From Schmidtea nova (lineage: Eukaryota): DNA of 64,000 nt. Both the position numbers and the translations under genes were made by a program. The stretch covers positions 203,174,001-203,238,000 of the forward strand of contig CM097882.1 in the NCBI GenBank assembly GCA_044892505.1, read 5' to 3'. The notes under the pieces are model-generated. The model did no database searches. It had not been told where the DNA came from and saw nothing but the letters and a program-made list of their open reading frames with translations. Positions 3,670-63,468 of this stretch are shown in pieces (position 1 is the first letter of the stretch; each line of letters starts with the position of its first letter).

Positions 3670-3672
3670 TGT

Positions 3673-4191: not shown

Positions 4192-4211
4192 GATTACGAT
4201 TGCAAACAGAA

Positions 4212-4835: not shown

Positions 4836-4928
4836 ATTTAAAAATTATATTTTCTTAATATTATTGTTTATATTTGTTTTAAATACCTGTTCTCAAAGTA
4901 ATTATTTCATTTCAAAATATTTTCAGTA

Positions 4929-5396: not shown

Positions 5397-5571
5397 CTGC
5401 AATATCGATGCATTAGAAATGCACGATTCTGATTGGCTCTGTGTGTATCGATAGAATAAAGACATGTTGTGTATGCTTCATTCTGATTGGTTCATTATGT
5501 GTGTTTCAAATCATGTGTGTTTCTTTGATATATATACTATGAACAATCTCACATAGTTTATATTCACAATA

Positions 5572-43881: not shown

Positions 43882-46800
43882 CTATTGCGGATGCAGAATT
43901 CTGTAATTGTAATTCTGAATGCTGGTACCCTGATCGTTTTCATCAAATGGGTTATTGTCCAGGAATCGATTATTTTCATCATCATCATCATCATATATAA
44001 AAGTATCCCCCACCCGATGATGCCCATGTGCCAAACTCTTGTTTTTGGAACACCAATACCGCTTATCATCCCTATTTGTCAGCGCCCTCTTATTGTTTCT
44101 AATGCTGTACAATTGATGGTTTTTGGAAGTAATGCGGAATTGTGGAACAGAGTAAACCTTATTGTTAAAGAAACAATCGCGATAAGAGTTATGGTTTAAG
44201 CCACTATCTTTTAATGTGACAGACTTAGCCTTGATAGTTTCTTTGTCACCTAACAAACTGTAACATTTGGGACGAAGAAACACCCACTCCTTATATTTCT
44301 GCCCTTTATTCTCATCTTTGAATTTTCCTATAACGGAATCCAGGGCTCTACTATATAGGGCATGTTATGGGTCATAGTTAGATGTGTCAAGCAAGGAGTC
44401 ACGAATCATGGCAGGTAAGAGAATGTCAAGACTACAATGTTTAATCTCCAAGAAGAAAGAGTCTGTATCACCTGCGACTATATTAATTTGACAGTTAAAC
44501 TCCTCGCGATATTTTTGCAAGTCGTTATACTGTAACTGATACATTCTCAGTTTAGACAGATCCAGTACTGATTGACCAATGTAGCTGGGTCTATCTAAAC
44601 ATACAGATTCTTTCCTAAACAAAACCGAAATCAAATCATTGTCTATCCTGGTAAATTTCCTAAATACCGATTTTGAGGTATATGTGATAAGTTTTTGCGC
44701 TGAATTGCACAGGCGTAAGTTCATACGTTTTTTCAAGTTCTCAACAGTTTTTCCATACAAACTGTTGTTGAGTAACTTGTAATAATCTCTATCGAGCGGA
44801 GTTGTGGAAGATGCTCGTAATTGGGTGTTTGTGTCTATATATTTTTTGAATACTGTGCTTTGTGTGTACCTAATAGCCCTATGTACCTTTGTGACAACAA
44901 CACCTAACTGAAGAAAGATTTGGAGAAGTCGCCAATGGAGAACGTAGTTTGTTTTCGGGTAATGTGTAAGTAGCAACTTCTCCACTTTAGAAAAAGGTGG
45001 ACACATCTTTTCAGGAGCTACCGGAAAATCATCAAGCTTATCCTGAATTGATGGTGGTATTTGTAAATCCACTTCGACTGTGTAACCATAATCAATCAGA
45101 CTTAAATCTACCGTTGTACATTCAATTAATAATCTCTCTAAAGTCGTATCGTCAGTCACCCACTCAAAATCACCATCGGGAAGTTTTTGACTCAAAGCCC
45201 ATCCATACAGGTTGTTTATGTCAATGTACAACAACTCTGTATTTTCATCACTACGAACAAAATGCTTATTCACAAAAGTTATCCCACCTCTAATCCCACC
45301 CTCAAAGAAATTGTACATCTCCATGTCGGTGAGAAGTACAATAGGTTTATCAAGACTTAACAAAGCAGAACTCCAAGAAAGACTGGGGATACCAAGAAAA
45401 TTAAGGGGTTCAAGTTTATTATGGGCAATACTCTTAGCCCGGAATTGCTGAAAAAAGTCAGCCAACAGGAAAACATCTAACTTGAGGTAGACCATCATAT
45501 AATCCAAAAGGGAATTACACGATGTCTCTTGCCATATCAATTTGGCCTTATCATACTCATCTTGGGACACATCACTCCATTTTGGGGGTAATTCTAATGT
45601 TGAGCTTAATACATCAAGGGATGTCGCTATATCATAAGGGAATATTCCTTTACTATTTATGATAGTGCCTCTAAACTCAGATTCCGTCAAGGGTAAAGAA
45701 TTCAAGTTTGACACAGCCTTTTTCAATGAAGAATTTACAAATTGGCAACTATCGATGAATTTAACTGTCAAAGAATCTATATAGGCGGTTAGGGTTAAAA
45801 CTTCTCACTTGTTAGCGGAATGCAACTTAAATTCCAGGACTTATAATTTGACAAACCGAATTTGATGATATGATGAAGATCATACCCTTTCAAATTATGA
45901 AAGACTACAGGTAGTGTGTGTCGTATTTGTCTGGATAAATTACATTTTCTACAAGCAGCACCAATGAATTTACCAGTGAAGTGATTATGGTCTCTAACAG
46001 GGGTATCTAATAATTTATTACACAAATGACAGTTTGTGCTGTTACTGTAATTAATAGCGTCATCGTCGGTAAAAATAATTTTCTTGTCAAAATTTTTATA
46101 GTAGTAGGGACTTACAATCTTTTTTGATATATGCTCAATTTGACGTAAAAACTGATCTACACAAGAAAGCCCTATAAAAGAATTATAAAATTTTTCTCCC
46201 GTATAATTGTTGAAACACAAAAGCCCAGCAGAAATGGGTAAGTGTTTTTGATAATATCTTTCATCTTTTGGGAGTATTGCCTCAAAATCGGCATAAATGA
46301 CAAAAGGAGGAGTGATGGTTTTTCTATAATCACTAAATTCCAATAAAGAGTTATCGGGTAGAGTATACATTGTGGTTCCTAATTGGTTTTTATCACAAAG
46401 ACCTATATGTCTATTAAAACTATCGTCACGTCTAAATCCATTAAGACACCTAGGACACCACTTACATTGAATACGAACTGAACTTATTGATGAGTTTCGA
46501 CAATTTAGAAATATATTTAGGTTAGATATAGCGACATAATGATAGGTTTTTCGATTCTCCAATAATAATAAATTTAAACAAGTACCTCCTACCACCTTAC
46601 TACGATAAATAATATCTATGAAGGGATGTTTCATTATAGTGTCATTATTACTTATATTAATCAAGGCATTCTCCTCGTAACTTAAGACATTAATGGCATA
46701 TCCTGGGTTTTGTCCTTTAAATTTGGAAATATTTGATAATTTCATTGGCATATCAGCCGGGTCATATACAAGTTGGGAAAGATTATAGGATGAAGACAGA

Positions 46801-47972
46801 TGACGTAATTCATCGGGAGTGCTGCTATATTTTATAAGGGCCAATATCGAATAAAGAAAACAAAATTGATCGTCGTTATTTACATTAACTAGACAATTTT
46901 TCCTGATTAACGTTCTGGGGGTTTGAATATATTTGCGACCACTCAGTCTACTTATCTCAGAGTATTTTGTGACTATAAAACTAATATATTCAATTTTTCT
47001 GATGGTCCAATTACTCCCCTTTTCATTTATTTTACTTATTTTCTCGTTTAAAAGAGAGATACCCTCGTCAATGAAAGATTCGCTCCAAACACGAGCAGAG
47101 TTTGAGATGACGAAAGATTGAAGTTCATCATCTTTCTCAAACTCTACTTTAATACAAAATTGTATTTTCACCGATTTCATTTTACTTACAGTTTCAAATA
47201 ATTTATCAAGGAGAACGTCAGGAACAGAAAGAGTTTGACAATTCAAAGACGACACATCAAGCTTCACTATAACATGGGAGTTATTCAAGTCTGAAACTAT
47301 ATCAACTACGCCACAGCCTACTTGAACCGAAAAACAATTAAGAATTTGGGGTACTACCTCGCTAAGAATCTCGTCATCACTAATATTTACAATCTCATCA
47401 TCATCATCACTAACATTTACAACCTCGTTATCTACAAGAACCTCGTTATCTACAAGAACGTCGTTATCTACAAGAACGTCGTTATCTACCAGAACCTCAT
47501 TATCTACAAGAACATCGTTATCTACAAGAACCTCGTTATCTACAAGAACCTCGTCGTCGTCGTCACTTATTGTTATGATTTCGTCTATTTTATTCTTTTT
47601 TGTGGGAATATCAGTTGAAAAATCTGATTGTCTTTTACTACCTATTACATTTATTAACTTATTGATTGACTCTATCAATTGTTGGTTTTGTAATAAAATC
47701 TCATTCATTGTAGTATTGTTATTATTGTTGTCAATTTGCCTATTGGTTTCATGATTGGTTTCAATGTTAGTTGTTGTTGTTGTTGTTGTTGATGTAGTCA
47801 AAGCTTTTGAGTAAGCTGTATTAAAAATGGTTTTTTTAGAAGGCATATATTGAGTTAAATGAATATGGTGTTTATCATAGAAGTCAGTATATGTCGATGT
47901 TTCAAGATTTTGGCATACGGGGCATAACAGGTAAGTTATACAATTATATTTATAACGATAGTATTTTTCCAT
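43882..47972 (-). pseudogene. polB: Protein-primed family B DNA polymerase with one frameshift (about 45795) and one in-frame stop (44365-44367)
   Basis: YADFE, HNLKGYD, KFIDS, YIDINNLYG, KLLNNSLYGK, AGDTDS, LRPKCY motifs across three consecutive ORFs. Confidence 0.92.
47420..47555 (-). repeat. 18-bp coding tandem repeat (DNEVLV/DNDVLV)n in the pPolB N-terminal region
   Basis: Seen in DNA and in the translated ORF. Confidence 0.9.
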
Positions 47973-48514
47973 AATGACGTCACAGTCGTTATGGCAAATA
48001 CTATTGCAAAAAGTCGGATATTTATAACCTACATAACAAATTTAAATTTAAAATATATATCATTAATATTTTTAAATAAAAAATCTACATAATAATGTCT
48101 TAATATTTTTTAAAATATTTATTTCATAATTGTTTTTTCATCATAAAAAATAAATCAATAATATTATAATAAATATATTAATAATAATCTAAGTTTAACA
48201 TATTACTTAATAGTTTATGAAGACAAAACTATTATGTAATAGGTTAAAATTAATAGATATTTTATAAAGTCTGACAGTTGCTAATCAAATTTTGACATAT
48301 TACATAATAGTTTAAGAAGATAAACCTATTACGAAATATGTTAAAATTTAAAGGTTATTTATTTATCATATGGTATGTTAAAGTTGTTATTAAAATAATT
48401 TTTATCTTAAGATTATAATTATTATTATTATACCATGAGTTATATTAAAATAATCTATCATTATCAAATTAATATACAATATGTTGTATTAAAATAGTTT
48501 ATCTTTATCAAATT

Positions 48515-48703
48515 NNNNNNNNNNNNNNNNNNNNNNNNNNNNNNNNNNNNNNNNNNNNNNNNNNNNNNNNNNNNNNNNNNNNNNNNNNNNNNNNNNNNNN
48601 NNNNNNNNNNNNNNNNNNNNNNNNNNNNNNNNNNNNNNNNNNNNNNNNNNNNNNNNNNNNNNNNNNNNNNNNNNNNNNNNNNNNNNNNNNNNNNNNNNNN
48701 NNN
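48515..48703. other. Assembly gap (189 N)
   Basis: Direct reading. Confidence 1.
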
Positions 48704-48821
48704 ATTATTAAAAACTAATATTATTATTGAATATATTCATAGTTAATTGAGAATACTATTTAATTAAGGGAAAATATTAATAGTAAAATATTATAAAAAC
48801 ATTATAAAACATTATAAAACA

Positions 48822-49367
48822 TTATAAAAATTTAAAAATCTTACATTTTGTTCTACCATTCATCACGGAATTTATCGATGCATTATTTAAAAAATGTCCA
48901 GTATTTGAATCCTTATTAAAATTCATCGCGGATACACTTGAATTGTTATTAAAATTAAAATTCGTCGCGGATTCATTTGGGGCATTAAAAAGTTCTATAA
49001 AACATTAAATAAAATAATAAATATACAAATAAAATTTTACCGTTTCTATAAAAAACATTATTGTTTTCGTTTCCCGATACATTTCCCGATAGGTTTGGGA
49101 TATTAAATTCCATCGCCGATACATTTTTGGCATTTATATGTTCTATAAAACATGAAATAAAATAATAAATATACAAATATAATTTTACCGTTTCTAAAAG
49201 AAACATTATTGTTATTGTTTCCGGATACATTTGTAACATTTCGCATATTAATTCTTGACATTCCTATAATAAATTACGTTTAAAAATAATAAAATAAAAA
49301 TAAATAAATCCTTACCATTCAATCCATTAATGTTGGTATTTTTAACATTATTGATATTGTTGTACAT
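48822..49367 (-). CDS. Four-exon Asn-rich Polinton gene (exons 49367-49316, 49263-49189, 49142-49041, 48994-48822), 133 aa
   Basis: Three GT..AG introns (52, 46, 46 nt), all phase 1, internal exons 75 and 102 nt keep frame; not in ORF track as such. Confidence 0.7.
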
Positions 49368-49691
49368 ATTTAATAATTGATTATATGATGAATAAGAAAT
49401 TTTGGGTTATGGTAAAAAGTGACTAAAATATTGAAAACATATCTTTATATAAGATATATTGCATAATATTAATTGAACCAATGAAAATCGTTTATGAGAA
49501 GAAAAGAGTCGCTCGCATACATACAACATGGATTTACCAGCTGTGTGTGTATTATCATACACATATGTTATACATACAAGCTAACTCATTATAATTTCCA
49601 TTAATACACACATGATTACTCATGCACGATGACCGCAGAGATTATGCATTTCAATTGCAAATTTTTTATTTCAAATTAATTAAGCATATTA

Positions 49692-50111
49692 TTAATTTTT
49701 TAAATAATCTAAAGCCCCCACCAAACACCCTTTATATGCACAATTTGTATGATCTCGATATGGGCATGAAATATTGTCAGGAAAAGTTTCAACTTCCTTA
49801 ATATTATACTTAATTAATCTTAGGGACGGAAAATATCTTTTTAAAACAGTAAGTTTATCTTGATCAGTCACATAGAAAATCGCATCAACATCTTCAATTT
49901 CTTTCAAAATACATGTTGGACAAAAGTGGTCTTCCCCTTCATACCATTCTAATCTGTCATGTTCACCAATTCCAGCCCAAAAAGGAACATCATTATATAT
50001 CCAATATCTTGGTCGAAAAATATTATTAACATTCATAATACATAATTCTTTAATAATAATCCCTCCGCAATTATTATTATAACCATAAATATCAATAAAA
50101 TAACAAGTCAT
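49692..50111 (-). CDS. Polinton accessory protein resembling a DnaQ/DEDD exonuclease fold with C-terminal Cys/His motif
   Basis: FIDIYGY..IIKELC, LEWYEG, CPYRDHTNCA; fold assignment from memory of the family. Confidence 0.45.
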   Translation of the reverse strand: MTCYFIDIYGYNNNCGGIIIKELCIMNVNNIFRPRYWIYNDVPFWAGIGEHDRLEWYEGEDHFCPTCILKEIEDVDAIFYVTDQDKLTVLKRYFPSLRLIKYNIKEVETFPDNISCPYRDHTNCAYKGCLVGALDYLKN

Positions 50112-50141
50112 TTTTCTAAAACATTTATTAAACTACATTGT

Positions 50142-50525
50142 TTATACTTTTAACATTGAATTAAGCCATGCAAGACAATGTTGACCACAAGTAATTGTTA
50201 ATGGATGTTGATACCGAATTCGATTATATACAATCGGTTTACCCAATGTTTGAAGTTTACTAACTAATAAACCGGGGTAATAACATCCGAATGGATCGAA
50301 TGCATACACCTTGCTTGGTTTCACGTATACAGCAATCCAATGTTCTCCGCCTAGAGTAGATGATTGAGTATTGACGACTATGGCTTGGTTGACATCTAAA
50401 TAAGGGATTTTGTCTAGTGGATATACTCCAATAAATTCATTTCCCAATAAATGTTTTCCAATTCGATTAACCTGAATAGAACTATATAAATAGATTTATT
50501 TAATAAATAATAAAACTTACTCCAT
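50142..50525 (-). CDS. Adenain-like cysteine protease; exon 1 50525-50521, 39-nt intron, exon 2 50481-50142, 114 aa
   Basis: GEHWIA, FDPFG, Q..TITCGQHC catalytic motifs; splicing supplies ATG and gives MDSIQVNRIGKHLLGNEF. Confidence 0.85.
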
Positions 50526-50568
50526 GACAAATTGTTAAATCTTTGACTTGTACATTTATATTGATAGT

Positions 50569-51616
50569 TTAAACCAAAACTGTTCGATTAGCAGTAATTT
50601 GAATTTCATTTTCAAATACCCCATATATTATTACATGTACTGGTTCTTCAATAGCTTTAGCAAACTTTATATCTAATCTTAAATTTCCATTTTGAGGTAA
50701 TTGACTTTGATTTAAATCGAAATCCGGAGCCAAAACAAATGTAAAGAAAGGGTATTTATTTTTAAAATCGGCTAATGTTATACCACAATTCAAATTCTTA
50801 TCTAAATATCCCATATTTCTGACCATCGATTGCATATATGTAGTACAATAATTATCATTTTCGAAATCTTGAGTATATGTTTCTCGATAATCAGTGTTTT
50901 TCGATAAAGATAGAGAAGTTACATTGAAATGTTTGAATTTCGAACTTGATGCAGTATATGATCCATTGTATTGAGTTTCACTTTGAAATGAGACCAGAAT
51001 AAAATTTGGCATTCTTCGATCTCCGAATATTTGTTCCTTATAGAAAGATGATGCACCTTTACCAATAGCAAATTGTACTATTTCTTTGGTTTTCATTGGA
51101 TAAATAGCGTGTTTTGAGTTAAGTCCAACTTGATGTCCAGCTAATACAGATGGTTCAACACGAACGCGACGAATCATTAACTTTGCATCAACTAATTGAC
51201 ATTTTGGTGCACCGTTTTTTGAATAAAGTGATAGTGAAGAATCAGAACGCTTCAGTCTGATGTGAACATTGACACCTGGTAATAAATATTTCGGTTGATC
51301 CATGAAATCCAGTTGTAGAGATGAACACATTGTAAATAGCTTTGAACCTTTGATCCACGCTTTTCTCTCGTCAGAATCTCCATATCCCATTGGAGTAAGA
51401 CAAGTTTCTTTAGTATCACCATTATAATTTAAAATAGTTTCGATTATTGCCTTGTGTGCATATGTATTGTTTCCACCTTCAATTTTGATATTATTAAAAC
51501 CAAGAATCGCGTCCTTGAATAGAGTATGAAACATAAAATTGTTTGGTATAACATCATCAGTTGCAGACAAATCTTTTTTATCGGCATTTACAACTTTTAT
51601 TTGAACTGTTAGTAAA
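50569..51616 (-). pseudogene. Major capsid protein of Polinton B, C-terminal part
   Basis: Continuous with the N-terminal part at 59449-59774 once the insertion and 153-bp duplication are removed. Confidence 0.9.
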
Positions 51617-51658
51617 CTGTTAGTAAAGCCGATACCCAAAATTCTCTCAAATGATATT

Positions 51659-51985
51659 TCACAAACCATGAAATTGATCCTGCGTAAACCATTGAACAAT
51701 ATCAAAAGTACTAGATGAACCACATGGAAAATGACTCAAGGGATCCATAAATTGGCCCATTACTTTTAAACATTTCATTCTAACGTGAGAATATGTTGAG
51801 TTTAAATTTCGAACAATTTGCATTATTTGGAAATTGTTGATATCATTACATTTAGAAATTGAATTAATTTCTTTCAAAATTTCATATTTTTCAGGTGATA
51901 AAACATCGGTCATTGTGGTTGGACTTGCAAAATGATTGGTAAAAATGATATATTTTAATTTTTTACATTTGCATTTATTTTGCAT
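51659..51985 (-). pseudogene. Captured host gene 5' fragment in the LTR, tentatively tepsin (ENTH)-like
   Basis: EILKEINSISK..NLNSTYSHVRMKCLKVM resembles tepsin EEIAKISH..RLHSSSGHGKLKVLKIL from memory; duplicate at 58540-58866. Confidence 0.3.
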
Positions 51986-52163
51986 TGAATAACATTGATT
52001 TTTTTATTTTGACTGAGGGTTTGGTATTGTTCGAGGTTTGTTTTAATATTTCTCGTGGAATTTATATTTTGCTGCTAAAGTTTAAAAATTGTAAGAAACT
52101 TGTGAATATAGTTTAAAATAAATATTTTTTAAAAAGTGGACTACTAGTTTTTGATAATTTAAA

Positions 52164-52567
52164 ATGCGTTATTCTATTGTTAAAATTTTAATTGTCCTAC
52201 AAATTTTAACACTTCATATTTTGCAAATGTGTCACAGTAATATTGTTGGATGTGGTGGTTTCGTTAAAACAGATATCATTGGATTTGCTTATCATAAATT
52301 ATCAGCACAATTAATGTTTTCGGACGGAACTCTAAATTATGTGACTGATGTCCCTCCAAATGGAGCGCATTCTATTCCTATATATGATTTCGGTTTCTAT
52401 GTTACCAAAATTATGAGTCCTGACGGTTGGAATATTGAACCAACTGATGGCTACGTTATAAACATTAATAGCCAAGATTCTCGTCCAGATGACTATAATT
52501 TTCATTTCGCTGGTTTTACCGTACTTGGTAAAGTATCAACAGCTAATATTGAAACAGGTCCACTAAA
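52164..52567 (+). other. NOMO: Captured N-terminus of nodal modulator (NOMO) inside the LTR
   Basis: Signal peptide then IVGCGGFVK..GTLNYVTD..PN..IPIYDFG..GWNIEP..NFHFAGFTVLGKV..GP, matching the NOMO N-terminus; duplicate from 59045. Confidence 0.85.
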
Positions 52568-54929
52568 AATGGTGTCAGAGGAAAACCAATCTCCAATTCA
52601 AGATGGAAATCAAACATTTCGTCCCCAAGTCTCACAACATCCAGCAACAATGAATAATTCATTTCAATTAAACTCATCTAATTCTAATAATGCAAGTACG
52701 CTTAGTCAAATTGAAGTCGTTAAGCGAATTGCAGCTGCAATGCAACCACCACCACCTCCGATGCATTTAAGCAATCGACAAAATCAACCGTCAATTCCAA
52801 CCCCATTTCAAGTAAATCAAAACTCTCAAATTCCATTAGACTGTGCGCAATTGATAAGGATTCCAACCAGTTCACAAGACTCAGCTACTAACATTCGACA
52901 GGCTTCACATTTATTACAACAGAATTTAATCTTACAAAGTGATAAATTTAAGCAAGCTAACAATCATATATCAGATTCTAGCAACTCTACAGCCCCTAAT
53001 CAGTCTTTAATCGTCAACAATTCAACGAATAGTAGTCTGTCAGCAATAACAATAAGTTCACCTCCAGTCGCTCCACAGAATCAAAATTCTACAGTTCTTT
53101 CAATGATTAACGTCGACGTTCGAATATTAGAAGCGATAAATCGATCGATTTCTCAGCAGAATCCAAAACCAGTAAATTCAATGCCAGTAAATCCCAATTT
53201 TTCTCTTATTCAAACGGATCCCAAAGTCGCTCAACAATTGATTAATGACTTTCAAAAGCAGTTTCTTTGCATACCGCTAGGTGCTAAGCCACAGGGATAC
53301 AATTCAATTGGTCAAACATCGGAAGCAACACAAATCAACATGAAAAATTGCAATAACATCAAATCTATCGTAAATTTTTCACCAGCTCCATCGAATATGA
53401 ACTTAAACACCAACAACGATATCAATAATTCGCTATTAAAAGCTCCATCAAATTCAAAAGTCACAGGAACTCCAATATTAACAGATTTTCTTCTCTTTTC
53501 GGAACAGAAGATCAGCCCCCATTATCGCTGTGGAGTTACGTTAGCATATTTTATTATTATATTAAATTTCTATTATTATATATTATTATTATTTATATCA
53601 TTATTATTAAAATCATTATTATTAAAATTAACGGAGCCGCCCAATCTTCCGAATTTTAGTCTACGTCGCATATCCTATAGGTTTTTGTCAATATTCGTAA
53701 GGGTTTCCTCCGCCACATTTCACTTTAAACTAGCCCAGGACACGACTATATCAAAACTATCTACATTAATTTGCAAGCGCTTGTCGTACGAGGGACCGAC
53801 ATACATATCTTATAATGGCGCAATATTAAGGAATCAGGACTCACTTTTAAGTTCTGACATATGTTCGGATTCTTTGTTGTTCTGTCATGTACCATTGTAT
53901 GGCGGCGCACCATCAAGTATAGATGATGACAACGAATACGACGATAAAAAGCCCAAACCTTTGCCTAAAAAGCAAAGAAATGTTCGAGGCGCTGCTTCTT
54001 CCGACAGTAACTCTAGACAAAATATTAATTGTCCGTTCTTTTTAGATGAGAACCAATCACCATCAACTTGGTTACTCACACTCGAAGCCCTTTTAGAAAG
54101 TTGCGGCGTTACTTCTTCAAGAGATAAATTCTATAGAATATTATCTCTCATTCCACAGGAACATTTAGGCCGCCTTTCTGCCGTTATTCGCCGCACAACG
54201 CAAAAAACCTTTCTAACTCCTTTTGAGGAACTCAGCACAGGACTGCTGGATTTATTTAAAGTCCCCAAACAGGAAATATTCTCAAAATATTTCAAGGCCC
54301 AATCTTTAGGAAGTTGTAAGCCGACAGAATTTTTGCAGAAGGCTTTTACAGACCTCGAACAAATGCAAAATGGGACAGCACCCGACCAAAACATGCTACG
54401 CCAGTTCTTTTTAAGTGTACTTCCGACACACACACAACAGATACTTGCTTTATCGTCTCCGGTAGATATACACGAATTAGCAAAAATGGCGGACAAAATT
54501 CATGAAATTGTTCCGTTAGGTGGTACACCAGGCTCATCTGTCAATAGCCTTCCTATCGCAAGCCCGCCGATCCCATCATCAACAGAAAATGCTCTTCTTT
54601 GCGCCATTCGCGACCTTACTGATCGTATTTCGCATTTGGAACGTTACAAATCTCCGTCTCGAAATCCACCACCTTCCAATGCGTTTGACCGACGACGTTC
54701 CAAATCCCCGGCTTATTCAAACATTTGCTTTTATCATACCAAATATGGGACGAAAGCAAATTGTTGCAACATAGGATGTGGCTGGCGAAACAAAGCAGCT
54801 ACCCTCAAAATCATTGATAAGTGCATCTATCACGCACGATTTGGGGATAAAGCAAACAAATGCATTGTAGGTTGCAAATCCTACAATTCCCCACCATCTT
54901 CTCCAAACAACATTCAAAAAAACTTGTAA
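52164..54929 (+). CDS. gag: NOMO-linker-TM-ubiquitin-like-Gag fusion ORF, 921 aa
   Basis: Single open frame from the LTR through the PBS into Gag (WLLTLEALL, KPTEFL, LAKMADKI, two Cys/His boxes). Confidence 0.85.
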   Translation: MRYSIVKILIVLQILTLHILQMCHSNIVGCGGFVKTDIIGFAYHKLSAQLMFSDGTLNYVTDVPPNGAHSIPIYDFGFYVTKIMSPDGWNIEPTDGYVININSQDSRPDDYNFHFAGFTVLGKVSTANIETGPLKMVSEENQSPIQDGNQTFRPQVSQHPATMNNSFQLNSSNSNNASTLSQIEVVKRIAAAMQPPPPPMHLSNRQNQPSIPTPFQVNQNSQIPLDCAQLIRIPTSSQDSATNIRQASHLLQQNLILQSDKFKQANNHISDSSNSTAPNQSLIVNNSTNSSLSAITISSPPVAPQNQNSTVLSMINVDVRILEAINRSISQQNPKPVNSMPVNPNFSLIQTDPKVAQQLINDFQKQFLCIPLGAKPQGYNSIGQTSEATQINMKNCNNIKSIVNFSPAPSNMNLNTNNDINNSLLKAPSNSKVTGTPILTDFLLFSEQKISPHYRCGVTLAYFIIILNFYYYILLLFISLLLKSLLLKLTEPPNLPNFSLRRISYRFLSIFVRVSSATFHFKLAQDTTISKLSTLICKRLSYEGPTYISYNGAILRNQDSLLSSDICSDSLLFCHVPLYGGAPSSIDDDNEYDDKKPKPLPKKQRNVRGAASSDSNSRQNINCPFFLDENQSPSTWLLTLEALLESCGVTSSRDKFYRILSLIPQEHLGRLSAVIRRTTQKTFLTPFEELSTGLLDLFKVPKQEIFSKYFKAQSLGSCKPTEFLQKAFTDLEQMQNGTAPDQNMLRQFFLSVLPTHTQQILALSSPVDIHELAKMADKIHEIVPLGGTPGSSVNSLPIASPPIPSSTENALLCAIRDLTDRISHLERYKSPSRNPPPSNAFDRRRSKSPAYSNICFYHTKYGTKANCCNIGCGWRNKAATLKIIDKCIYHARFGDKANKCIVGCKSYNSPPSSPNNIQKNL
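52570..52579 (+). promoter_or_regulatory. Primer binding site TGGTGTCAGA (tRNA-Leu-like, partial)
   Basis: 2 nt after the 5' LTR end; matches the known TGGTGTCAGA-type PBS over 10 nt. Confidence 0.7.
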
Positions 54930-57900
54930 TGCCATCACTCGTTGCGGCTGAAGTTGATGGCAAATTACCTCCTGCACTCGATTTATTTCTAGTGAGAGCT
55001 GAATCCCCTTCTTTCAGCGTTTCTCCGAACTTTTGCAGTACTCTCGATTTTCTTGTTGACACAGGATCCAGCCTCTCCATTCTTCCTTTACAATATGAAT
55101 CTCTTTGCGATGATTCCGTTTATACCTTGAAAGCCGCCAACGGAACCATGGTAAATACACACGGTTCTTTTTCAGCAAATTTCGTTCTTCCTTCTTTAAA
55201 TCAATCTTTTATATGGAAGTTCTGTGTCGCTGACGTTATCCATCCCATTCTTGGCTCAGACTTTTTGAGTTCACACAATTTGTTGGTCGATTGTCGTTCA
55301 CGCCTTTTGAGAACACATTCGCACACAAATTCGTCTTTAGTCATTGACACAAAAAAACTCAACATTTTCAACTCATCTGACGTTTCTGTATCCACTGCCA
55401 TTCAACCCATTCATCCAAAAATTGCTACAGACATTTTAAATAAATACACATTTTCACAAACAATGCCTTTACGAAAACAAGTCTCTGTAACATCTTACTG
55501 CCATACTATCAACACCACAAACTCTCTTCCGGTACGTTGTAAAGTACGCCCTCTTTCGAACGAAAAACTAGATTTCGTTCGCTCCGAATTCGCTACGTTG
55601 TTGAACGAAGGCATTATAAAAAGATCTAAATCTCCATGGTCTTCACCACTTCATCTCGTACCAAAGAAAGACGGAACTTTCAGACCTTGTGGAGATTATC
55701 GTCGTTTAAATATGATTACGGTTCACGACTCATATTCTATGCCTTTAGTAAACGACATTTTGTACAGACTTACCGAGGCCAAAATATTTTCAACTATAGA
55801 CTTAGTTAAGGCCTATCACCAAATCCCAGTTAAAGAATCTGACGTGGAAAAAACCGCAGTTTTAACACCTATCGGACTCTTTGAGTACGTTTTCATGCCG
55901 TTTGGCCTTAGAAATTCCGCTCAAACCTTTCAAAGACACATCGACCATATTTTAATGGATTTACCATTCGCAATTCCTTATATTGACGATATCCTTATTG
56001 GTTCTAAGGATGCGGAAACACACAAAAAACATTTAGATGCAGTTCTTTGCGCACTTTCTTCCAATAACCTACAAATTAATTTAGATAAGTGCTTATTTTT
56101 TAAAGAAGAAGTCCGTTTTTTAGGTCACATCATCTCGGGTCAAGGCGTCAGTCCACCATCCGACAGACTAGATACTATATCTAAGTTTCCTCTCCCACAA
56201 ACTGTTACTCAACTTCGGAGTTTTCTGGGAACAGTAAACTATTGCCACCGTTTTATTCCTAAAATTTCAGAAATTCTTTCACCTCTTTCTGGTTACTGTT
56301 CTAAACCAAAGAAATCCATAATTCCTTGGAACGATACTTCGTTGCTCGCTTTTGAGCATGCCAAAACAGCCCTTTCAAACATACAGACTCTGCATTATCC
56401 ACGAGGAGATTTGCCATTACGTTTAACCACAGACGCATCAAACATAGCAATCGGTGCCGTTTTACACCAGATAAACGGTTACATCCCAGATCCACTAGAA
56501 TTTTACTCAAAGAAACTAACCTCACCACAACAAAAATATTCAGCTTTCGACCGCGAACTTCTCGCTATTTACCAGTCGGTTAAACATTTTAAGCATTTAC
56601 TCGAGGGCCGTCTTTTTAGCATCCATACAGACCACAAGCCACTTGTTTACTTGTTCTCAATGAAAGACCCTTCTCCGAGACAACAACGCCAGATTAGCTA
56701 TATTAGCGAATTTTCTTGCCAAATATACCACATCGCCGGCAGTGATAACATTATAGCTGATTGCCTTTCACGAAATGTAAACGCAATTATCCACTGTCCT
56801 TTATTTTCTATCGACGAACTCCAAAATAATCCTCCAGATGCCATTGATATTTCGAAATTTGGCGACAAACACATAATCAAAGACAAAATTCACTACGACT
56901 CATCTCTTCCTGGCACTCTTCGCCCAATCTTGAATGACTCCATGAGAAAACTGGCTTTTCTCTCTGTCCACAACACGCACCACCCAGGTTCCTCAGCCAC
57001 TTTTAATCTATTACACACGTGTGTAGTTTGGCCAAACATGAGACATGATGTTAAACTCTGGGTTGCACAATGCATAGGATGCCAACGTTTTAAGATAACT
57101 AAGCACACTAAACCTCCAATAATTCATTATCCCACTGGCAACCGTTTCGAAAACTTACACATTGACATCGTCGGCCCAGTCCCAAGTGACTGCGGTTTCT
57201 CTTACTTATTAACCATGATCGACCGCAAGACTCGTTGGTTCGAAGTCATTCCTTTACGCACCATTTCTTCTAACACTATCGCAACTTCGCTAATTCAAAA
57301 TTGGATTTCACGATATGGAGTTCCCAAGTCGATCATCAGTGATCGCGGAACACAGTTTGAATCTAACTTATTTCAAGCTTTGACCGCTAAACTTGGGATA
57401 CAACATCTTCGTACGACCACATATCATCCACAAACAAACGGGTTAGTCGAACGTTTCCATCGTACTTTAAAAGCTTCTCTTGGCATTCTTTCTGAACAAC
57501 AAGGTTGGACAAAGGTTTTACCTTTCGTATTATTAGGTTGGCGAAATACACCTTCTAGGACTACAGGATCATCACCCGCTCAATTACTTTTCGGTACAAA
57601 CACATCGTTACCCGGTCAACTTGTCGACTTTGATAACTCTCCTACTTTGGAAGATCTCGCGATTGCTAGAGACCATTTTTTATCAATCGACACTAATCCT
57701 GAATTCTCTTCCTCGACCACCTATAAACCTTACATTCCAAAAACATTCGAAAATGCATCACACGTCTATATTAGAAATATAACTGATGCAAGTTTAAAGC
57801 CAAGATATTCCGGACCTTACAAGCTCGTCGAGATTAAAGAAAACAACGCGAAAGTGATCGTTAACGACGCTACACAAACATTTAACCTCTGCCGTCTTAA

Positions 57901-58270
57901 ACCAGCTTTAGTTTTGCTCGATGATGAACCTCCACCTGACAATTTCTCGACCCAAACAGATATAATCTCGAACTCTCACACAAACGATAATGACCTTATC
58001 AATTCCACTGAGGACGATCTTTCCAACAACTCACCTTCATACCCGATTGTTCAAACATCAGACGCAGAAAACAAAACGACGGAAAAATCTGAATACATAC
58101 CGTTTATCCCAGAACCGAATGACGTACTTCGTTTACCACCCATTTTGAGGAAAGCAAAGCAAACACAAAATAAGCCAAAGTCCGTCACTTACAACAAATG
58201 GGTTCGTGTCCGTTCTATTAATCAAAAACCGGATTCACCAACTAGACTAATAAGAATCTATTCAAATTAA
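54860..58270 (+). CDS. pol: Gypsy Pol (protease, RT, RNase H, integrase)
   Basis: LVDTGS, YIDDIL, TTDAS, HHPG..C..C, HIDIVGP, SDRGTQFE, VERFHR; no stops. Confidence 0.95.
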   Translation: MHCRLQILQFPTIFSKQHSKKLVMPSLVAAEVDGKLPPALDLFLVRAESPSFSVSPNFCSTLDFLVDTGSSLSILPLQYESLCDDSVYTLKAANGTMVNTHGSFSANFVLPSLNQSFIWKFCVADVIHPILGSDFLSSHNLLVDCRSRLLRTHSHTNSSLVIDTKKLNIFNSSDVSVSTAIQPIHPKIATDILNKYTFSQTMPLRKQVSVTSYCHTINTTNSLPVRCKVRPLSNEKLDFVRSEFATLLNEGIIKRSKSPWSSPLHLVPKKDGTFRPCGDYRRLNMITVHDSYSMPLVNDILYRLTEAKIFSTIDLVKAYHQIPVKESDVEKTAVLTPIGLFEYVFMPFGLRNSAQTFQRHIDHILMDLPFAIPYIDDILIGSKDAETHKKHLDAVLCALSSNNLQINLDKCLFFKEEVRFLGHIISGQGVSPPSDRLDTISKFPLPQTVTQLRSFLGTVNYCHRFIPKISEILSPLSGYCSKPKKSIIPWNDTSLLAFEHAKTALSNIQTLHYPRGDLPLRLTTDASNIAIGAVLHQINGYIPDPLEFYSKKLTSPQQKYSAFDRELLAIYQSVKHFKHLLEGRLFSIHTDHKPLVYLFSMKDPSPRQQRQISYISEFSCQIYHIAGSDNIIADCLSRNVNAIIHCPLFSIDELQNNPPDAIDISKFGDKHIIKDKIHYDSSLPGTLRPILNDSMRKLAFLSVHNTHHPGSSATFNLLHTCVVWPNMRHDVKLWVAQCIGCQRFKITKHTKPPIIHYPTGNRFENLHIDIVGPVPSDCGFSYLLTMIDRKTRWFEVIPLRTISSNTIATSLIQNWISRYGVPKSIISDRGTQFESNLFQALTAKLGIQHLRTTTYHPQTNGLVERFHRTLKASLGILSEQQGWTKVLPFVLLGWRNTPSRTTGSSPAQLLFGTNTSLPGQLVDFDNSPTLEDLAIARDHFLSIDTNPEFSSSTTYKPYIPKTFENASHVYIRNITDASLKPRYSGPYKLVEIKENNAKVIVNDATQTFNLCRLKPALVLLDDEPPPDNFSTQTDIISNSHTNDNDLINSTEDDLSNNSPSYPIVQTSDAENKTTEKSEYIPFIPEPNDVLRLPPILRKAKQTQNKPKSVTYNKWVRVRSINQKPDSPTRLIRIYSN
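54917..54962 (+). promoter_or_regulatory. -1 programmed ribosomal frameshift signal
   Basis: A AAA AAC heptamer 54917-54923, 6-nt spacer, stem TGCCATCA/TGATGGCA; pol is in the -1 frame. Confidence 0.8.
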
Positions 58271-58492
58271 TTGCACCACTGTCCACCAAGTTCTATTAGT
58301 TTTTTTTTTTTTTTTTCGGTTTCCTAAATTTCTTTCGCAATTCTTTCTCAGGTTATTCCATGTCATTCACGACTCTTTCCAAATACTTTCTGGACACTAC
58401 AAAATACCATATTATTATATAATAAACTACTATATTACGTATCTACATTATAGTATTTCAAAATGTACTCCGCATCTTCCGATGGGGGCTGA

Positions 58493-59448
58493 TGTAGTGG
58501 TCTAGAAAGCCGATACCCAAAATTCTCTCAAATGATATTTCACAAACCATGAAATTGATCCTGCGTAAACCATTGAACAATATCAAAAGTACTAGATGAA
58601 CCACATGGAAAATGACTCAAGGGATCCATAAATTGGCCCATTACTTTTAAACATTTCATTCTAACGTGAGAATATGTTGAGTTTAAATTTCGAACAATTT
58701 GCATTATTTGGAAATTGTTGATATCATTACATTTAGAAATTGAATTAATTTCTTTCAAAATTTCATATTTTTCAGGTGATAAAACATCGGTCATTGTGGT
58801 TGGACTTGCAAAATGATTGGTAAAAATGATATATTTTAATTTTTTACATTTGCATTTATTTTGCATTGAATAACATTGATTTTTTTATTTTGACTGAGGG
58901 TTTGGTATTGTTCGAGGTTTGTTTTAATATTTCTCGTGGAATTTATATTTTGCTGCTAAAGTTTAAAAATTGTAAGAAACTTGTGAATATAGTTTAAAAT
59001 AAATATTTTTTAAAAAGTGGACTACTAGTTTTTGATAATTTAAAATGCGTTATTCTATTGTTAAAATTTTAATTGTCCTACAAATTTTAACACTTCATAT
59101 TTTGCAAATGTGTCACAGTAATATTGTTGGATGTGGTGGTTTCGTTAAAACAGATATCATTGGATTTGCTTATCATAAATTATCAGCACAATTAATGTTT
59201 TCGGACGGAACTCTAAATTATGTGACTGATGTCCCTCCAAATGGAGCGCATTCTATTCCTATATATGATTTCGGTTTCTATGTTACCAAAATTATGAGTC
59301 CTGACGGTTGGAATATTGAACCAACTGATGGCTACGTTATAAACATTAATAGCCAAGATTCTCGTCCAGATGACTATAATTTTCATTTCGCTGGTTTTAC
59401 CGTACTTGGTAAAGTATCAACAGCTAATATTGAAACAGGTCCACTAAA
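58493..59448 (+). repeat. 3' LTR, 956 bp, termini TGTAGTGG...CCACTAAA
   Basis: Follows GATGGGGGCTGA; terminal inverted repeat with CA changed to AA. Confidence 0.92.
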
Positions 59449-59774
59449 GTATTGTTTCCACCTTCAATTTTGATATTATTAAAACCAAGAATCGCGTCCT
59501 TGAATAGAGTATGAAACATAAAATTGTTTGGTATAACATCATCAGTTGCAGACAAATCTTTTTTATCGGCATTTACAACTTTTATTTGAACTGTTAGTAA
59601 AGTATCATTCAAATCCAAATATTCAGATTGAGATCCGTTAATGTAAAATGCCACATCATTTCTACTGTCTGTAATAGAATTCATGGGAAATACTTCTTCA
59701 AATGCACCATATTCAATGACTGCTTGAGGAGATGGTCGGTCGAAAAGACATAATTCAGATTTACCACAAATCAT
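59449..59774 (-). pseudogene. Major capsid protein of Polinton B, N-terminal part
   Basis: MICGKSELCLFDRPSPQ as in A; runs into the 3' LTR after GGNNT. Confidence 0.9.
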
Positions 59775-60169
59775 TTTGCAAATATAGTTCCATGTCCTTT
59801 CATTCGATTGTTTATATACCTTCGATGCTTTTTACGTCTAGGTCCCACTTGTTCAGGTTCAGGTTCAGGTTCAGGTTCATCATTATTAAACATACTTGCA
59901 ACATTAGGAATCATACTACTCACGGTAGGCAAGACTTTACCAATTGCAGACAAAGCATTTGTTTTCAATGATGGTAATATTTTCTGATCATTCATGATGA
60001 CATCTTTGGCAGTTTTTAAACCAAAACTACCGATTCTCTTTAGAATTGGGAGTGCAAATCGCCCTATAGTTTTTAACCAACCTGATCCATACTGTTTACC
60101 GGCAAAATAAGGTAATTCACCACCAGTTTGGCTATTACTATACAATAAAATTATATCTGGATTAATCAT
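59771..60169 (-). CDS. Small virion protein, homolog of 1185-1568
   Basis: QTGGELPYF, QYGSGWLKTIGRFALPIL, MKGHG conserved. Confidence 0.75.
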   Translation of the reverse strand: MINPDIILLYSNSQTGGELPYFAGKQYGSGWLKTIGRFALPILKRIGSFGLKTAKDVIMNDQKILPSLKTNALSAIGKVLPTVSSMIPNVASMFNNDEPEPEPEPEQVGPRRKKHRRYINNRMKGHGTIFAK

Positions 60170-61208
60170 TTAATTTACGAAAATGTAATGTCAAATGTGT
60201 TTTTGAATCTTTTGGAAAATTTATTAATTTACCACTATCGTCACGGATATTTATTTCTATATTGTTTATACATGAGGTAGAAATAGGTAAATACATTGGA
60301 TTATCCATTACTATTTGTACAACTTCATCCTGTTCATATTTGTCGATCCATACAGATTTCAGTAGAGGAACCAGAGAATCACCGACAATTATTGGTTCGA
60401 TAATGTTACTGTAAATGAACATTTGTTGATGATGATTAAATAATTTGGCTTTGCGAATTCCTTTAACTTCTCTATCTTGATATTTTTCATATTTTAATCC
60501 AAGTGTATTGATTAGTTTTTGATCAAATATAACTTCTTTAACTTCATCTTTCAGTTTAAATTTGAATACATTGTCAATAATTTCAACACCTTTAAATATA
60601 TGAGAACAGAAAAATGTCAAATAATTATATAAATCTTCAACTTTTGTCATGTATATTTCGTCTTGGAATTCATAAAGTAAATCTGTTTCTAAATCATAAC
60701 TTATTGATATATGCATTTTCTCTGATGAATAATCAGAAGGAAAAAGCATTTTATAAGTTGAATTGTTGCTAATGATTTTTAATTCATTAAACCCAAATTT
60801 ATTCGCATCTTCTATATTTTCAAACTTAAAATAAAATGGTGTTATATCACAATTTATATGTAAATATATTTTATCTAGATGTAATTCAACTTTATCATTC
60901 AAATATTGAGTATCTTCATAATTAGTTTGAACTTTAAAGTAGTCATTTACAGTTTCAGTTGTCACTGTCGTGTAGTAAATTTTGCATTGGCTGTAATAAG
61001 GAAATTTGTTATATACAAATGTGAAATCTTGCAATGCAACTTCCCAATTACCACGTAAATAAATTGGATTTTGTAAATTGATCATGAATTTACTAGCTTG
61101 ATTATCTGGATGAATTAATGGGCAACTATTACTTGGTAAAATCATATAAAAGTTCATTTTACTAGATCTTTGGCTGATATCCATGATGGGTTTTGATATC
61201 CATGCCAT
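60162..61208 (-). CDS. Minor capsid (penton) protein, intact
   Basis: 348 aa; position between integrase and MCP block; LPSNSC, WEVAL, IEINIRDD motifs. Confidence 0.8.
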   Translation of the reverse strand: MAWISKPIMDISQRSSKMNFYMILPSNSCPLIHPDNQASKFMINLQNPIYLRGNWEVALQDFTFVYNKFPYYSQCKIYYTTVTTETVNDYFKVQTNYEDTQYLNDKVELHLDKIYLHINCDITPFYFKFENIEDANKFGFNELKIISNNSTYKMLFPSDYSSEKMHISISYDLETDLLYEFQDEIYMTKVEDLYNYLTFFCSHIFKGVEIIDNVFKFKLKDEVKEVIFDQKLINTLGLKYEKYQDREVKGIRKAKLFNHHQQMFIYSNIIEPIIVGDSLVPLLKSVWIDKYEQDEVVQIVMDNPMYLPISTSCINNIEINIRDDSGKLINFPKDSKTHLTLHFRKLND

Positions 61209-62220
61209 TTGACATAATATTGTTTATCTTTACCCACTATTTTAGTTTTTAAAATTTTTTCAATTCTAAATACTGTTAGTGGGGGAATAACTTGCAATTC
61301 TTGCTCGTAAAATTTACCACTAACTACATTATTTTCAGAATCAGAAATAACATACATGACAGGATCTTGGCTAGTATTAATTTTTGAGATCTGAAATACC
61401 TCATCACTCCAATTACTATCAAAATTCTTGATGAATGGTGAAGCAGATATTTTACTAATCCTAACATGATCACCAACTTTATATTTAGGTTTTTTCATTT
61501 TCGATTTTTCTTTGCGAGATAATAAAATCTTTGCTGTATTTTTTATTGAAACATCAACTGGTCTCATTCCCTTTAATCCTATATGCGGTGAATGATTATA
61601 ACTATGAATAATCTTTGGTAAAACATTAATGTATGTTTTATTCCCTTGATGCACAAAATACTTTTTCAATTTTTCTCTTAATGTACGATTAAATCTTTCA
61701 ACATGCGCTGCTTTGAATTGTGAAAATACCGAGTAATGATTTATTCCCTTTAAAATTTCTTTAACTTTGCTATTGTAAAATTCTTTACCTAAATTAAAAA
61801 TTAAATTTAATTTAATTAATTAATTTTCTTACCTAAATCAGTTTGTAAGTTTTTCGGCTGCCCATCAGCAAACAATGTTTTGATTGCCACTGCCATTTCA
61901 TTAGCAGATTTAGTTTTGGTAGGAATAGCACGAGCAAATCTACTGAAAACATCGATACATGTTAAGATATACTTATATCCCTTGTTAATATTCGAATAGG
62001 GAATCATTTCCATCAAATCCATTTGCCACAAGTCATTAATACCATATGTTTTATATGCTCTTGTTGGAAATCGTTTCAATGCTGGTTTGTTTAGACTGTA
62101 TGCCAGTTGCCCCGATAACCATTTTTGAGTCTCTTTTTTCGAGTTTGGGACTTTTTTCTTTAGCTTTTCGACTCCACCGAAACCGGCGGGATCTTTTGGG
62201 TTCGTCCAAATCTTCTCCAT
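61154..62220 (-). CDS. Chromo-integrase; exons 62220-61833 and 61788-61154, 340 aa
   Basis: 44-nt GTAAG..TTTAG intron 61832-61789; splicing restores LQTDLGKEFYN. Confidence 0.9.
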
Positions 62221-62284
62221 TACAACAAGTAGATTTAAAATTCAATGTAAGATTAGCTAAATAACTCAAAGGAGTTTGTCCCAT
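62051..62284 (-). CDS. Overprinted MGQ/CC ORF, homolog of 3448-3669
   Basis: Same frame relationship to the integrase. Confidence 0.6.
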   Translation of the reverse strand: MGQTPLSYLANLTLNFKSTCCNGEDLDEPKRSRRFRWSRKAKEKSPKLEKRDSKMVIGATGIQSKQTSIETISNKSI

Positions 62285-62287
62285 TGT

Positions 62288-62824
62288 TTATGTTTGTTGT
62301 CCTAATAAACCAACTCCTCCTAACAAAGATAATGCTAATGGTAATAATGCAGCAATAAATCCTCCTTGTTGTTTATATATGATTTTGCGCATTTGTTTCC
62401 GACTTTTAGTATTTACAAGTGATAACAATGGTTTCTTGTGTTTGTTTAGAACTTTTTTATTTGATTTACTTATATTAATTTTACCTTTGACGATTTTAAC
62501 TATAACATCAAGTAAATCATCAATAACATAATTTGGAAACGATTGTAAAATACTAATTCTTTTAATACTAGGTGCCTTAAGTAATGCATTGAAAAATGGG
62601 AAACTACGATGATTTGATGTTTTTATTTCATTTTCAATTTTTTCTAAAGATTCTTTTGGTTTCAGATTATGTGAAATAAGATTCTTTGCAGGAATATTTT
62701 CAGTAATAAGTTTCTTCGGTGACGTGTAACTAGTCTTTGGTGGTACTTTAGTTTAACGTTTCTTTTTAAAAACTTTTTTAATTTTAGGCGACTTTAATAT
62801 CTTTGTGCGTGATTTTAAAAACAT
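62288..62824 (-). pseudogene. Basic pX-like protein, homolog of 3673-4191, with one in-frame stop (62753-62755)
   Basis: Manual translation: MFLKSRTK..KKR*..HRSFPFFNALLKAPS..KQQGGFIAALLPLALSLLGG. Confidence 0.75.
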
Positions 62825-62844
62825 TATTGATGTAATTTATTATT

Positions 62845-63468
62845 TCAACTTTGTTTATAAATCATTGCACCTTCTTTATTGAAAATATCGGTACTAACTC
62901 GTAATTCATCAGGACATTGTTGTGTGAAATCCAGAAAAATATACCCATGTGGAATTTGAGTTGCATCTTGAAATGCATCAATTAAAAAACTACGATTATT
63001 AGGGTAAGCTTGTCTTGCAAGAAAATCAATAACTGTTGCATCTCTGGGATTTTTAAAAACAACTAGATATTGAACATTTAAATTACGAGTTCGATGAGCT
63101 CCACCTTGATGAAATAAATTCTGAGTAATAAAAATAACTGTAACTCCTTTATGTCTAGCTATTTTCGTGAATAAATTATTAAAGTCCTTTTCTTTATTAG
63201 CTTCTTGATACAAATCATCAATAATAATAACATCACCTTGTCGTAATCTAGATGACCAGTTTTTATCAAATCCTTTAATTGTTGTCATTTTTATCTTACA
63301 AAATTGGTCTTGTGTCAAACCATGTTCATCATCAGCTCCCCGGTGCCAATATATTTTATTAAATTTTGATTTAAACATATTTGATTGTAATAATTTACAA
63401 ACAAACAATGTTTTCCCACTTCCACTTGGACCAACAATTTGATATACTGCGTCGTTTCTCAATTCCAT
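62845..63468 (-). CDS. Genome packaging ATPase
   Basis: GPSGSGKT, IIIDD; closely similar to 4212-4835. Confidence 0.92.
   Translation of the reverse strand: MELRNDAVYQIVGPSGSGKTLFVCKLLQSNMFKSKFNKIYWHRGADDEHGLTQDQFCKIKMTTIKGFDKNWSSRLRQGDVIIIDDLYQEANKEKDFNNLFTKIARHKGVTVIFITQNLFHQGGAHRTRNLNVQYLVVFKNPRDATVIDFLARQAYPNNRSFLIDAFQDATQIPHGYIFLDFTQQCPDELRVSTDIFNKEGAMIYKQS

Follow-up and report, generated by a model that had tools for sequence, protein, structure and literature searches.

The locus studied here raises the question of how an LTR comes to contain the starts of two host genes, placed head to head. We examined it in a stretch of 64,000 nucleotides from Schmidtea nova, the whole of which is referred to as the window. 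The initial annotation had proposed that an element had exchanged its own promoter for a single host bidirectional promoter together with two gene starts. Our analysis revealed that the window LTR consists of two separate mRNA captures and not of one bidirectional promoter. The core of our findings is near certain: two mRNA pieces from unlinked genes in the LTR, ten different cargos in one and the same slot, their in-frame fusion, the layout of the resulting ORF1, and a near-neutrally evolving cargo next to conserved gag and pol.

Self-comparison of the window established the LTR pair as real, with 51625-52567 and 58506-59448 agreeing over 943 bp with zero mismatches, and at least 40 further matches at 99-100% identity bore out that the LTR is multi-copy. 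As defined from other copies, the full LTR comprises 956 bp (TGTAGTGG...CCACTAAA) and is flanked by a 5-bp target site duplication (TSD). The 5' LTR of the window copy is devoid of the first 13 bp, TGTAGTGG included; among the terminal sequences initially assigned, the CCACTAAA end was recovered, while TGTAGTGG does not occur at 51625 and is present in the 3' LTR only. A contig from an independent public run (indicating presence only; library type not on record) covers 51651-52243, and therefore the LTR is not an assembly artefact. The region between the LTRs harbors a 923-codon frame and the 1139-codon pol frame (Table 1). In the latter, Pfam places the reverse transcriptase (RT) at 270-428, RNase H (RH) at 493-621 and the integrase (IN) at 695-860, and a DTG protease (PR) motif can be read from the sequence upstream, resulting in the order PR-RT-RH-IN. 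With two LTRs, a primer binding site (PBS), a polypurine tract and a short TSD, the element is a Ty3/gypsy LTR retrotransposon. In family copies, the PBS reads TGGTGTCAGA(A/G)G, and we presume a resemblance of TGGTGTCAGA to tRNA-Leu; a pattern search for the primer tRNA yielded 813 genome matches, and ARAGORN, which called none of the 6 loci examined a matching tRNA, gave no confirmation.

Table 1. Features of the element in the window, and cargos found in the LTR slot of the family.
Feature	Position	Strand	Details
Target duplication, left copy	51464..51616	.	153 bp, Polinton-like gene; 153/153 identical to right copy
Short templated filler	51617..51624	.	repeats end of duplicated target, joins truncated 5' LTR
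5' LTR	51625..52567	+	LTR positions 14-956, terminus CCACTAAA
Spliced host INTS4 mRNA 5' end, antisense	51675..51970	-	~57 nt before ATG at 51913, and ~80 codons
AT-rich spacer	51971..52118	+	~148 bp, common to sister LTRs with other cargo; AATAAA at 52117
NOMO mRNA 5' end	52119..52561	+	45-nt leader and 132 codons; 2-nt overlap with LTR terminus
ORF1	52164..54929	+	921 aa from NOMO ATG, reading through LTR end and PBS
Primer binding site TGGTGTCAGA	52570..52579	+	overlaps internal ATG at 52569; assigned from sequence
Hydrophobic segment	53529..53636	+	aa ~456-491, predicted transmembrane (KD19 maximum 2.45), then basic residues
Ubiquitin-like domain, ends LYGG	53691..53906	+	PF00240, E 1e-4, below curated cut-off
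Gag	53907..54926	+	DUF7041 region (E 9e-5, below cut-off), two CX2HX9CX3C (CHCC) motifs
pol	54851..58270	+	1139 aa stop to stop, -1 frame; RT, RNase H, integrase by Pfam
Polypurine tract GATGGGGGCTGA	58481..58492	+	adjoins 3' LTR
Full-length 3' LTR	58493..59448	+	956 bp, TGTAGTGG...CCACTAAA; INTS4 at 58556-58851, NOMO at 59000-59442
Target duplication, right copy	59449..59601	.	153 bp
Cargo: histidine acid phosphatase	LTR slot		E 5e-15
Cargo: PCMT	LTR slot		E 4e-51, long form
Cargo: epoxide hydrolase N-terminus	LTR slot		E 2e-7
Cargo: LRR protein	LTR slot		E 4e-6
Cargo: tetraspanin-like	LTR slot		E 0.002
Cargo: claudin-like	LTR slot		E 0.04-0.15, weak
Cargos: unnamed, n=3	LTR slot		194-aa signal-peptide leader, signal-anchor leader, 32-aa leader (L091)

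The insertion of the window copy is aberrant, since a 153-bp target duplication replaces the 5-bp TSD of other copies, and it likely reflects one-ended integration followed by host repair. One-ended integration events of retroviruses resemble this kind of insertion. The element resides in a Polinton-like element (43882-51735 and 59424-63468 of the window, with a similar copy at ~200-5400), for which Pfam identified pPolB, an adenain protease, an A32-like ATPase and a chromodomain. The interrupted gene is presumably the major capsid gene; a PDB sequence search with it returned no match. Polinton-like 5' flanks were found for 19 of 75 family copies compared to 10 of 93 control pieces, which are non-random controls, providing a weak hint that the family may prefer such targets.

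With respect to the first host piece, the N-terminal ORF in the LTR was correctly attributed to NOMO: it matches PF22898 (E 1e-12), and LTR positions 508-941 match the host gene at 95% identity in an alignment of 435 nt that begins 45 nt before the ATG. A genome search with a NOMO domain that is absent from the LTR located a single host locus (G000:C1, ~200.63 Mb), and host DNA further upstream than these 45 nt showed no match to the rest of the LTR. The captured part, which had been counted as 134 codons and comprises 132, corresponds to the signal peptide and the first beta-sandwich domain. The microhomology at the 3' join is likewise genuine, although it extends over 2 nt (CC) only: older copies read ATTGATTATGGTCC-ACCAAA where the host reads ATTGATTATGGTCC-TT, and they retain host NOMO sequence up to GGTCC, followed by the terminal CCACTAAA.

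The minus-strand ORF, tentatively described as tepsin-like before, belongs to INTS4 according to protein, genome and PDB matches. One protein match was obtained among 1.84 billion (P0002, E 2e-11); using P0002 as a query against the genome revealed a single host gene at C1 ~509.43 Mb besides 62 LTR-type matches, and this gene was identified as INTS4 through a PDB match (E 2e-11). A search for the ENTH family resulted in 9 genome loci, none of which matched the LTR, and tepsin was rejected. LTR positions 64-359 represent the INTS4 5' end in antisense orientation, and we infer that the ATG at 51913 is the true INTS4 start. Two host introns of ~55 nt each are missing from this piece, contrary to the expectation that antisense introns would be retained.

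Between the two pieces lies a spacer that had been taken for ~180 bp of captured host promoter. It is shorter (Table 1) and 78% identical to PCMT-type LTRs over LTR positions 328-541; against both host upstream regions no match was found, with 211/300 and 80/300 shuffles scoring as high. Judged by these comparisons, the spacer is element-borne DNA and not host intergenic DNA. The NOMO 5' join resembles the PCMT start region (0/300 shuffles for L114), and the INTS4 3' join includes 17 unexplained nt. Spacers of later LTRs hold relics of earlier captured 5' UTRs, namely of the signal-anchor gene (94% over 47 nt in L181) and of PCMT (L114). INTS4-free LTRs (L093, L100, L128) contain an open frame of 45-58 codons in U3 (~15-180, ..LKEHSLPQTFTLFSDIRFSTSHFNDEL..), which may be a still older host-derived piece.

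These results bear directly on the proposal that a single host bidirectional promoter with its two gene starts replaced the promoter of the element. Two gene starts are indeed arranged head to head around an AT-rich spacer, and this arrangement, its passage through reverse transcription and its spread all withstood scrutiny. However, the parental genes are located 309 Mb apart on G000:C1 (NOMO at ~200.6 Mb, INTS4 at ~509.4 Mb), without any head-to-head parental locus, and the antisense piece is spliced. Moreover, the pieces occur separately, NOMO without INTS4 in L108, L114 and L127 and INTS4 together with acid phosphatase in L169 and L170. The spacer is foreign to both host upstream regions and common to PCMT-type LTRs. 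The distance between the parents, the splicing of the antisense piece, the separability of the pieces and the foreign spacer refute the proposal for this assembly, barring an additional intron-free INTS4-NOMO locus missing from it, and we regard the proposal as extremely improbable. The initial annotation had passed over the in-frame fusion to gag and the pattern across the family.

To place the window copy in its family, we took 20 copies, 15 of which could be parsed by script. The 5-bp TSD was present in 15/15, and the LTR pairs were identical in 14 and differed by a single mismatch in 1, from which we read that the family is very young. An ORF of 921-924 aa starting at the NOMO ATG is open in 14 of the 20 copies, with 1 copy internally deleted and 5 not parsed. 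In addition, 40 diverged relatives were chosen by body sequence, independently of LTR content. Their bodies are mostly 92-98% identical to the window type and their LTRs differ: ~40 nt at the start and ~8 nt at the end are retained, and the 3' half is the start of a different host gene. Pattern searches for the PBS, one matching 16 places and the other 67, completed the list, and ten cargo genes were identified in one LTR slot, NOMO and nine others in relatives (Table 1), with at least 40 matches to each capture for most cargos searched.

All ten cargos are in frame with the PBS-overlapping ATG, in at least one copy each. Given independent captures, the chance of this is (1/3)^10, i.e., ~2e-5. 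Because copies share ancestry, the unit of evidence is the ten genes, and since several cargos sit on the remaining tail of a previous cargo, the captures are not fully independent. Thus, the long-PCMT and signal-anchor leaders end in CNMLWLRNPLK, a tail left by the LRR cargo captured before them (host HGNPFICSCNMLWL), and the epoxide hydrolase and claudin-like leaders have another tail in common (nested cargos in L263-L268, L176, L227 and L283). Furthermore, the translations of 10/10 cargos exhibit a hydrophobic N-terminal segment as read by hydropathy. A census of 98 5'-LTR/PBS junctions, de-duplicated by flank, allowed the assignment of a cargo in 93, with 87 in frame at the cargo 3' end and 6 out of frame. 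One of the 5 junctions lacking an assigned cargo carries the 32-aa leader, which was missed by the probe. Five copies combine a long open gag with a broken leader.

We traced five of the ten cargos to a host parent (NOMO, PCMT, the unnamed signal-peptide gene, the unnamed signal-anchor gene and LRR), and INTS4 as well. For acid phosphatase, tetraspanin-like, claudin-like and epoxide hydrolase, no parent was found among the matches listed; for epoxide hydrolase, the best non-LTR candidates are about 80% identical. For all 4 parents that have introns in the captured span, these are missing from the captured piece (2 for INTS4, 3 for PCMT and 1 each for the two unnamed genes), and in the gene of the 194-aa leader, the missing intron sits directly after the start codon; the captured spans of NOMO and LRR are intronless in the host. 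The pieces therefore show the intron loss relative to the parent by which retrocopies are recognized. The matches start ~40-160 nt upstream of the host ATG for five of the genes and at the start codons for LRR.

In a tree of gag-pol from 44 natural copies (4 rows left out, midpoint root, 15/41 inner branches strongly supported), the family is ladder-like, with tetraspanin-like and claudin-like copies basal, followed by signal-anchor, SP095 and phosphatase and then by PCMT and NOMO. Cargo types succeed each other on this tree and recombine near the tips. Three copies (L245, L246, L247; C1 329.23 Mb, C1 371.17 Mb and C3 110.52 Mb of G000) carry a phosphatase 5' LTR and an SP095 3' LTR. Their 5-bp TSDs are intact and the U3 regions of the mixed-cargo LTR pairs are 92-99% identical, suggesting either gene conversion or an intermolecular strand transfer in which co-packaged subfamilies took part.

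The frame that the NOMO ATG opens encodes, in this order, a 135-aa leader, a Q/N/S-rich linker, a hydrophobic segment, a ubiquitin-like domain and Gag. Hydropathy was the sole basis for calling the signal peptides and the transmembrane segment. ORF1 includes 15 N-glycosylation sequons, 13 of which are in the linker, for which no homologues were found among 3216 candidates. The hydrophobic segment lies inside a 141-nt GT..AG stretch, a candidate in-frame intron; directly before the hydrophobic segment, older copies have an ATG that younger ones have lost, as it is absent in NOMO-type, PCMT-type and one phosphatase-type copy. For the ubiquitin-like domain, a PDB sequence search returned no match. 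A single-sequence AlphaFold model of this domain with Gag was discarded (pLDDT 36).

Compared to the host gene, the NOMO leader of the window copy shows 4 synonymous and 14 non-synonymous differences (pN/pS 0.93), and over 10 copies its pN/pS ranges from 0.09 to 1.58, with few sites. Across 14 pairs, pN/pS was 0-0.32 for CA-NC, 0.09-0.31 for pol and 0.38-1.49 for the linker, with 0.12-0.83 for the ubiquitin-like domain. The NOMO cargo thus evolves near-neutrally, and gag and pol are conserved. Therefore, the cargo is not conserved for NOMO function, and yet its frame persists.

A comparable order was found at a greater distance, as the metagenome protein P0003 (31% identity) has hydrophobic segments, a ubiquitin-like domain ending LLGG and a CHCC Gag in the same succession. 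A sister family (L047, L049, L050) with ~420-bp TG..CA LTRs has a signal-peptide-like ORF that begins in the LTR and crosses the PBS; in the L049-type ORF, it continues into an Ig-like domain (V-set match in L050, E 8e-5) and then into hydrophobic segments, closing with Gly-Gly. Another sister CHCC element (L289/L035, G000:C1 ~200.648-200.654 Mb) with 598-bp LTRs contains a nuclear-receptor zinc-finger piece (PF00105, E 3e-5), which shares the reading frame of the ubiquitin-like domain and Gag, lacks an N-terminal signal peptide and is accompanied by a weaker hydrophobic stretch.

According to the accessible part of the literature, LTR elements are known to switch template at microsimilarities to mRNA packaged with them (PMC5131818). 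Based on the sequences, we consider it probable that the LTR slot is refilled by such switches and that refills are kept for a signal peptide that would make the Gag precursor a type I membrane protein. Minus-strand strong-stop DNA would copy ~8-50 nt of the LTR end and then jump, at a microhomology, onto a co-packaged host mRNA; the reverse transcriptase would run to the mRNA 5' end and return, leaving a sense cargo beside the PBS. The same jump during plus-strand synthesis would place an antisense cargo in U3, as for INTS4. Since both pieces run toward the mRNA 5' end, NOMO and INTS4 would mimic a bidirectional promoter. No ATG occurs in LTR positions 335-552, i.e., in the 218 nt before the NOMO ATG, and the cargo ATG is therefore likely the first start of the transcript. 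The signal peptide of the cargo would direct leader and linker into the ER lumen, where the hydrophobic segment would stop transfer, so that the ubiquitin-like domain and Gag would face the cytosol and a host deubiquitinase could free Gag by cleaving after Gly-Gly. Because this cleavage would release Gag, the identity of the luminal cargo would be immaterial. Selection would retain captures that supply Gag with a start codon and a signal peptide, and particles assembled at the ER would hold more secretory mRNAs, favoring further captures. It should be noted that simple ATT/TTA repeats make up the coding sequence of the hydrophobic segment and that its pN/pS is 0-1.7 at few sites, which speaks against a membrane-bound Gag. 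More tentatively, the clade as a whole may produce Gag within a type I membrane protein, where it would form the cytosolic tail until its release at the ubiquitin-like domain, with start codon, signal peptide and ectodomain outsourced to serially replaced pieces of host mRNA that the element's own reverse transcriptase would write into the LTR, and with the LTR acting as a self-renewing display cassette for fragments of host ectodomains.

Selection could also act on the frame alone, as an out-of-frame upstream ATG would block Gag, with the bias toward signal peptides arising from ER-located particles that package ER-bound mRNAs. The near-neutral cargo would fit, as would the non-secretory in-frame cargo of the sister element L289. 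Ty1 RNA is translated on SRP and its particles are nucleated at the ER, according to the available part of the source (PMC3945221). However, mRNAs of nuclear proteins do get captured (INTS4 and the nuclear receptor of L289), and yet none of the ten slot cargos is without a hydrophobic N-terminus. In addition, by topology rules, a protein with no signal peptide and a transmembrane segment more than 320 residues in is expected to have its Gag in the lumen, and we consider selection on frame alone unlikely. Cargo turnover could alternatively be driven by silencing, if a fresh host-like LTR escapes or blunts piRNA targeting and frame and signal peptide are by-products. The succession of cargo types along a ladder-like tree is what serial sweeps would produce, but this leaves ten in-frame cargos with hydrophobic starts unexplained, and bodies that are mostly 92-98% identical would still be targetable. 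As a full account, it appears quite improbable, while it could act together with the membrane-Gag model. The remaining alternative concerns the 141-nt stretch, whose removal by splicing would leave the leader to carry the whole of Gag into the lumen of the ER, a route that has been reported for Ty1. The stretch begins with GTTAG at 53540, ends with CCTATAG at 53680 and has a length divisible by 3, and host INTS4 introns likewise start with GTTAG. Nevertheless, it is open and hydrophobic in 11 of 12 copies read, which an intron does not need, and its hydrophobic segment is followed by basic residues, making splicing very hard to sustain.

Several known systems share parts of the membrane-Gag model. 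In LTR-mediated retroposition of metazoans, host mRNA pieces likewise enter LTR elements through short microsimilarities, pieces of several genes can come together and the resulting chimera is mobilized further; these retrocopies are, in the text available, internal, between discontinuous LTR elements, and non-autonomous (PMC5131818). In contrast, the window family captures inside the LTR, with open gag and pol, in one recurrent slot, at the mRNA 5' end and in the gag frame, and neither internal insertion nor a non-autonomous element was found. With the CsRn1 clade (CsRn1, PwRn1, AgCR), the family shares the CX2HX9CX3C Gag, TGT...AAA termini, the -1 gag/pol overlap and the PR-RT-RH-IN order (PMC2582038). 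That clade has a 4-bp TSD, a tRNA-Trp PBS (TGGTGAG/CCCCGT/A) and a reported ORF1 of ~250-330 aa, whereas the window family has 5 bp, TGGTGTCAGA and ~920 aa, and the accessible part of the same report does not describe a leader, transmembrane or ubiquitin-like extension (PMC2582038). As the tRNA-Trp PBS and the 4-bp TSD are lacking, we refer to the element as CHCC-type and do not file it as CsRn1.

MLV glycoGag, as far as the source text was available, similarly gains a signal sequence from an upstream in-frame start and enters the secretory pathway, but it is encoded by the virus, starts at a CUG and is a type II accessory protein whose Gag part lies outside (PMC5120145). The leader of the window family is host-derived, exchangeable and located within the LTR, and its predicted topology leaves Gag cytosolic. 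Ubiquitin inserted in the polyprotein of cytopathic pestiviruses is cut by cellular C-terminal hydrolases to yield the authentic downstream N-terminus; in the portion of the source at hand, this insert is near-native ubiquitin from sporadic capture, compared to a diverged domain fixed in ORF1 with predicted cleavage here (PMC8310069). For Ty1, Gag synthesis and particle assembly are also tied to the ER through SRP and ER-nucleated retrosomes, while its Gag enters the lumen and returns to the cytoplasm, and the part of the source available makes no mention of a signal peptide captured from the host or of a membrane anchor (PMC3945221). Literature titles and abstracts, a scope with most subscription journals outside, contained neither an LTR that captures host signal peptides serially and in frame nor a transmembrane-ubiquitin-like-Gag ORF, and repeat libraries in genome-paper supplements may include the family without describing it.

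LTR elements with intact coding capacity would thereby acquire host genes again and again, under selection for frame, as part of their life and not as an accident that leads nowhere. A membrane-anchored Gag precursor released at a ubiquitin-like domain would represent a possible path to a membrane or envelope-like function without an env gene. With every capture, a host 5' UTR, start codon and signal peptide are dispersed in tens of copies, and piRNA self/non-self discrimination and exon shuffling become testable in one family with dated natural replacements. Moreover, such LTRs are liable to be annotated as false paralogues or false bidirectional promoters.

Besides these results, several arrangements of related sequences were observed in the genome. 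At L261/L208 (G000:C1 385.56 Mb), the 5' LTR runs into ~280 bp that repeat the 3' flank without a difference, after which a second, phosphatase-type LTR end appears. At L090 / L051-L069 (G000:C3 ~140.32 Mb), tandem 68-bp units with LTR-end/PBS junctions lie beside a diverged relative, and a long tandem array with a ~900-bp period and a tRNA-3'-end-like motif extends from ~300.51 Mb on G000:C2. Furthermore, a large gypsy-like element (L034-L035, G000:C1 ~200.632-200.644 Mb) is located directly upstream of host NOMO, with ORFs that we take to be gag, glycoprotein-like, pol and exonuclease-like.
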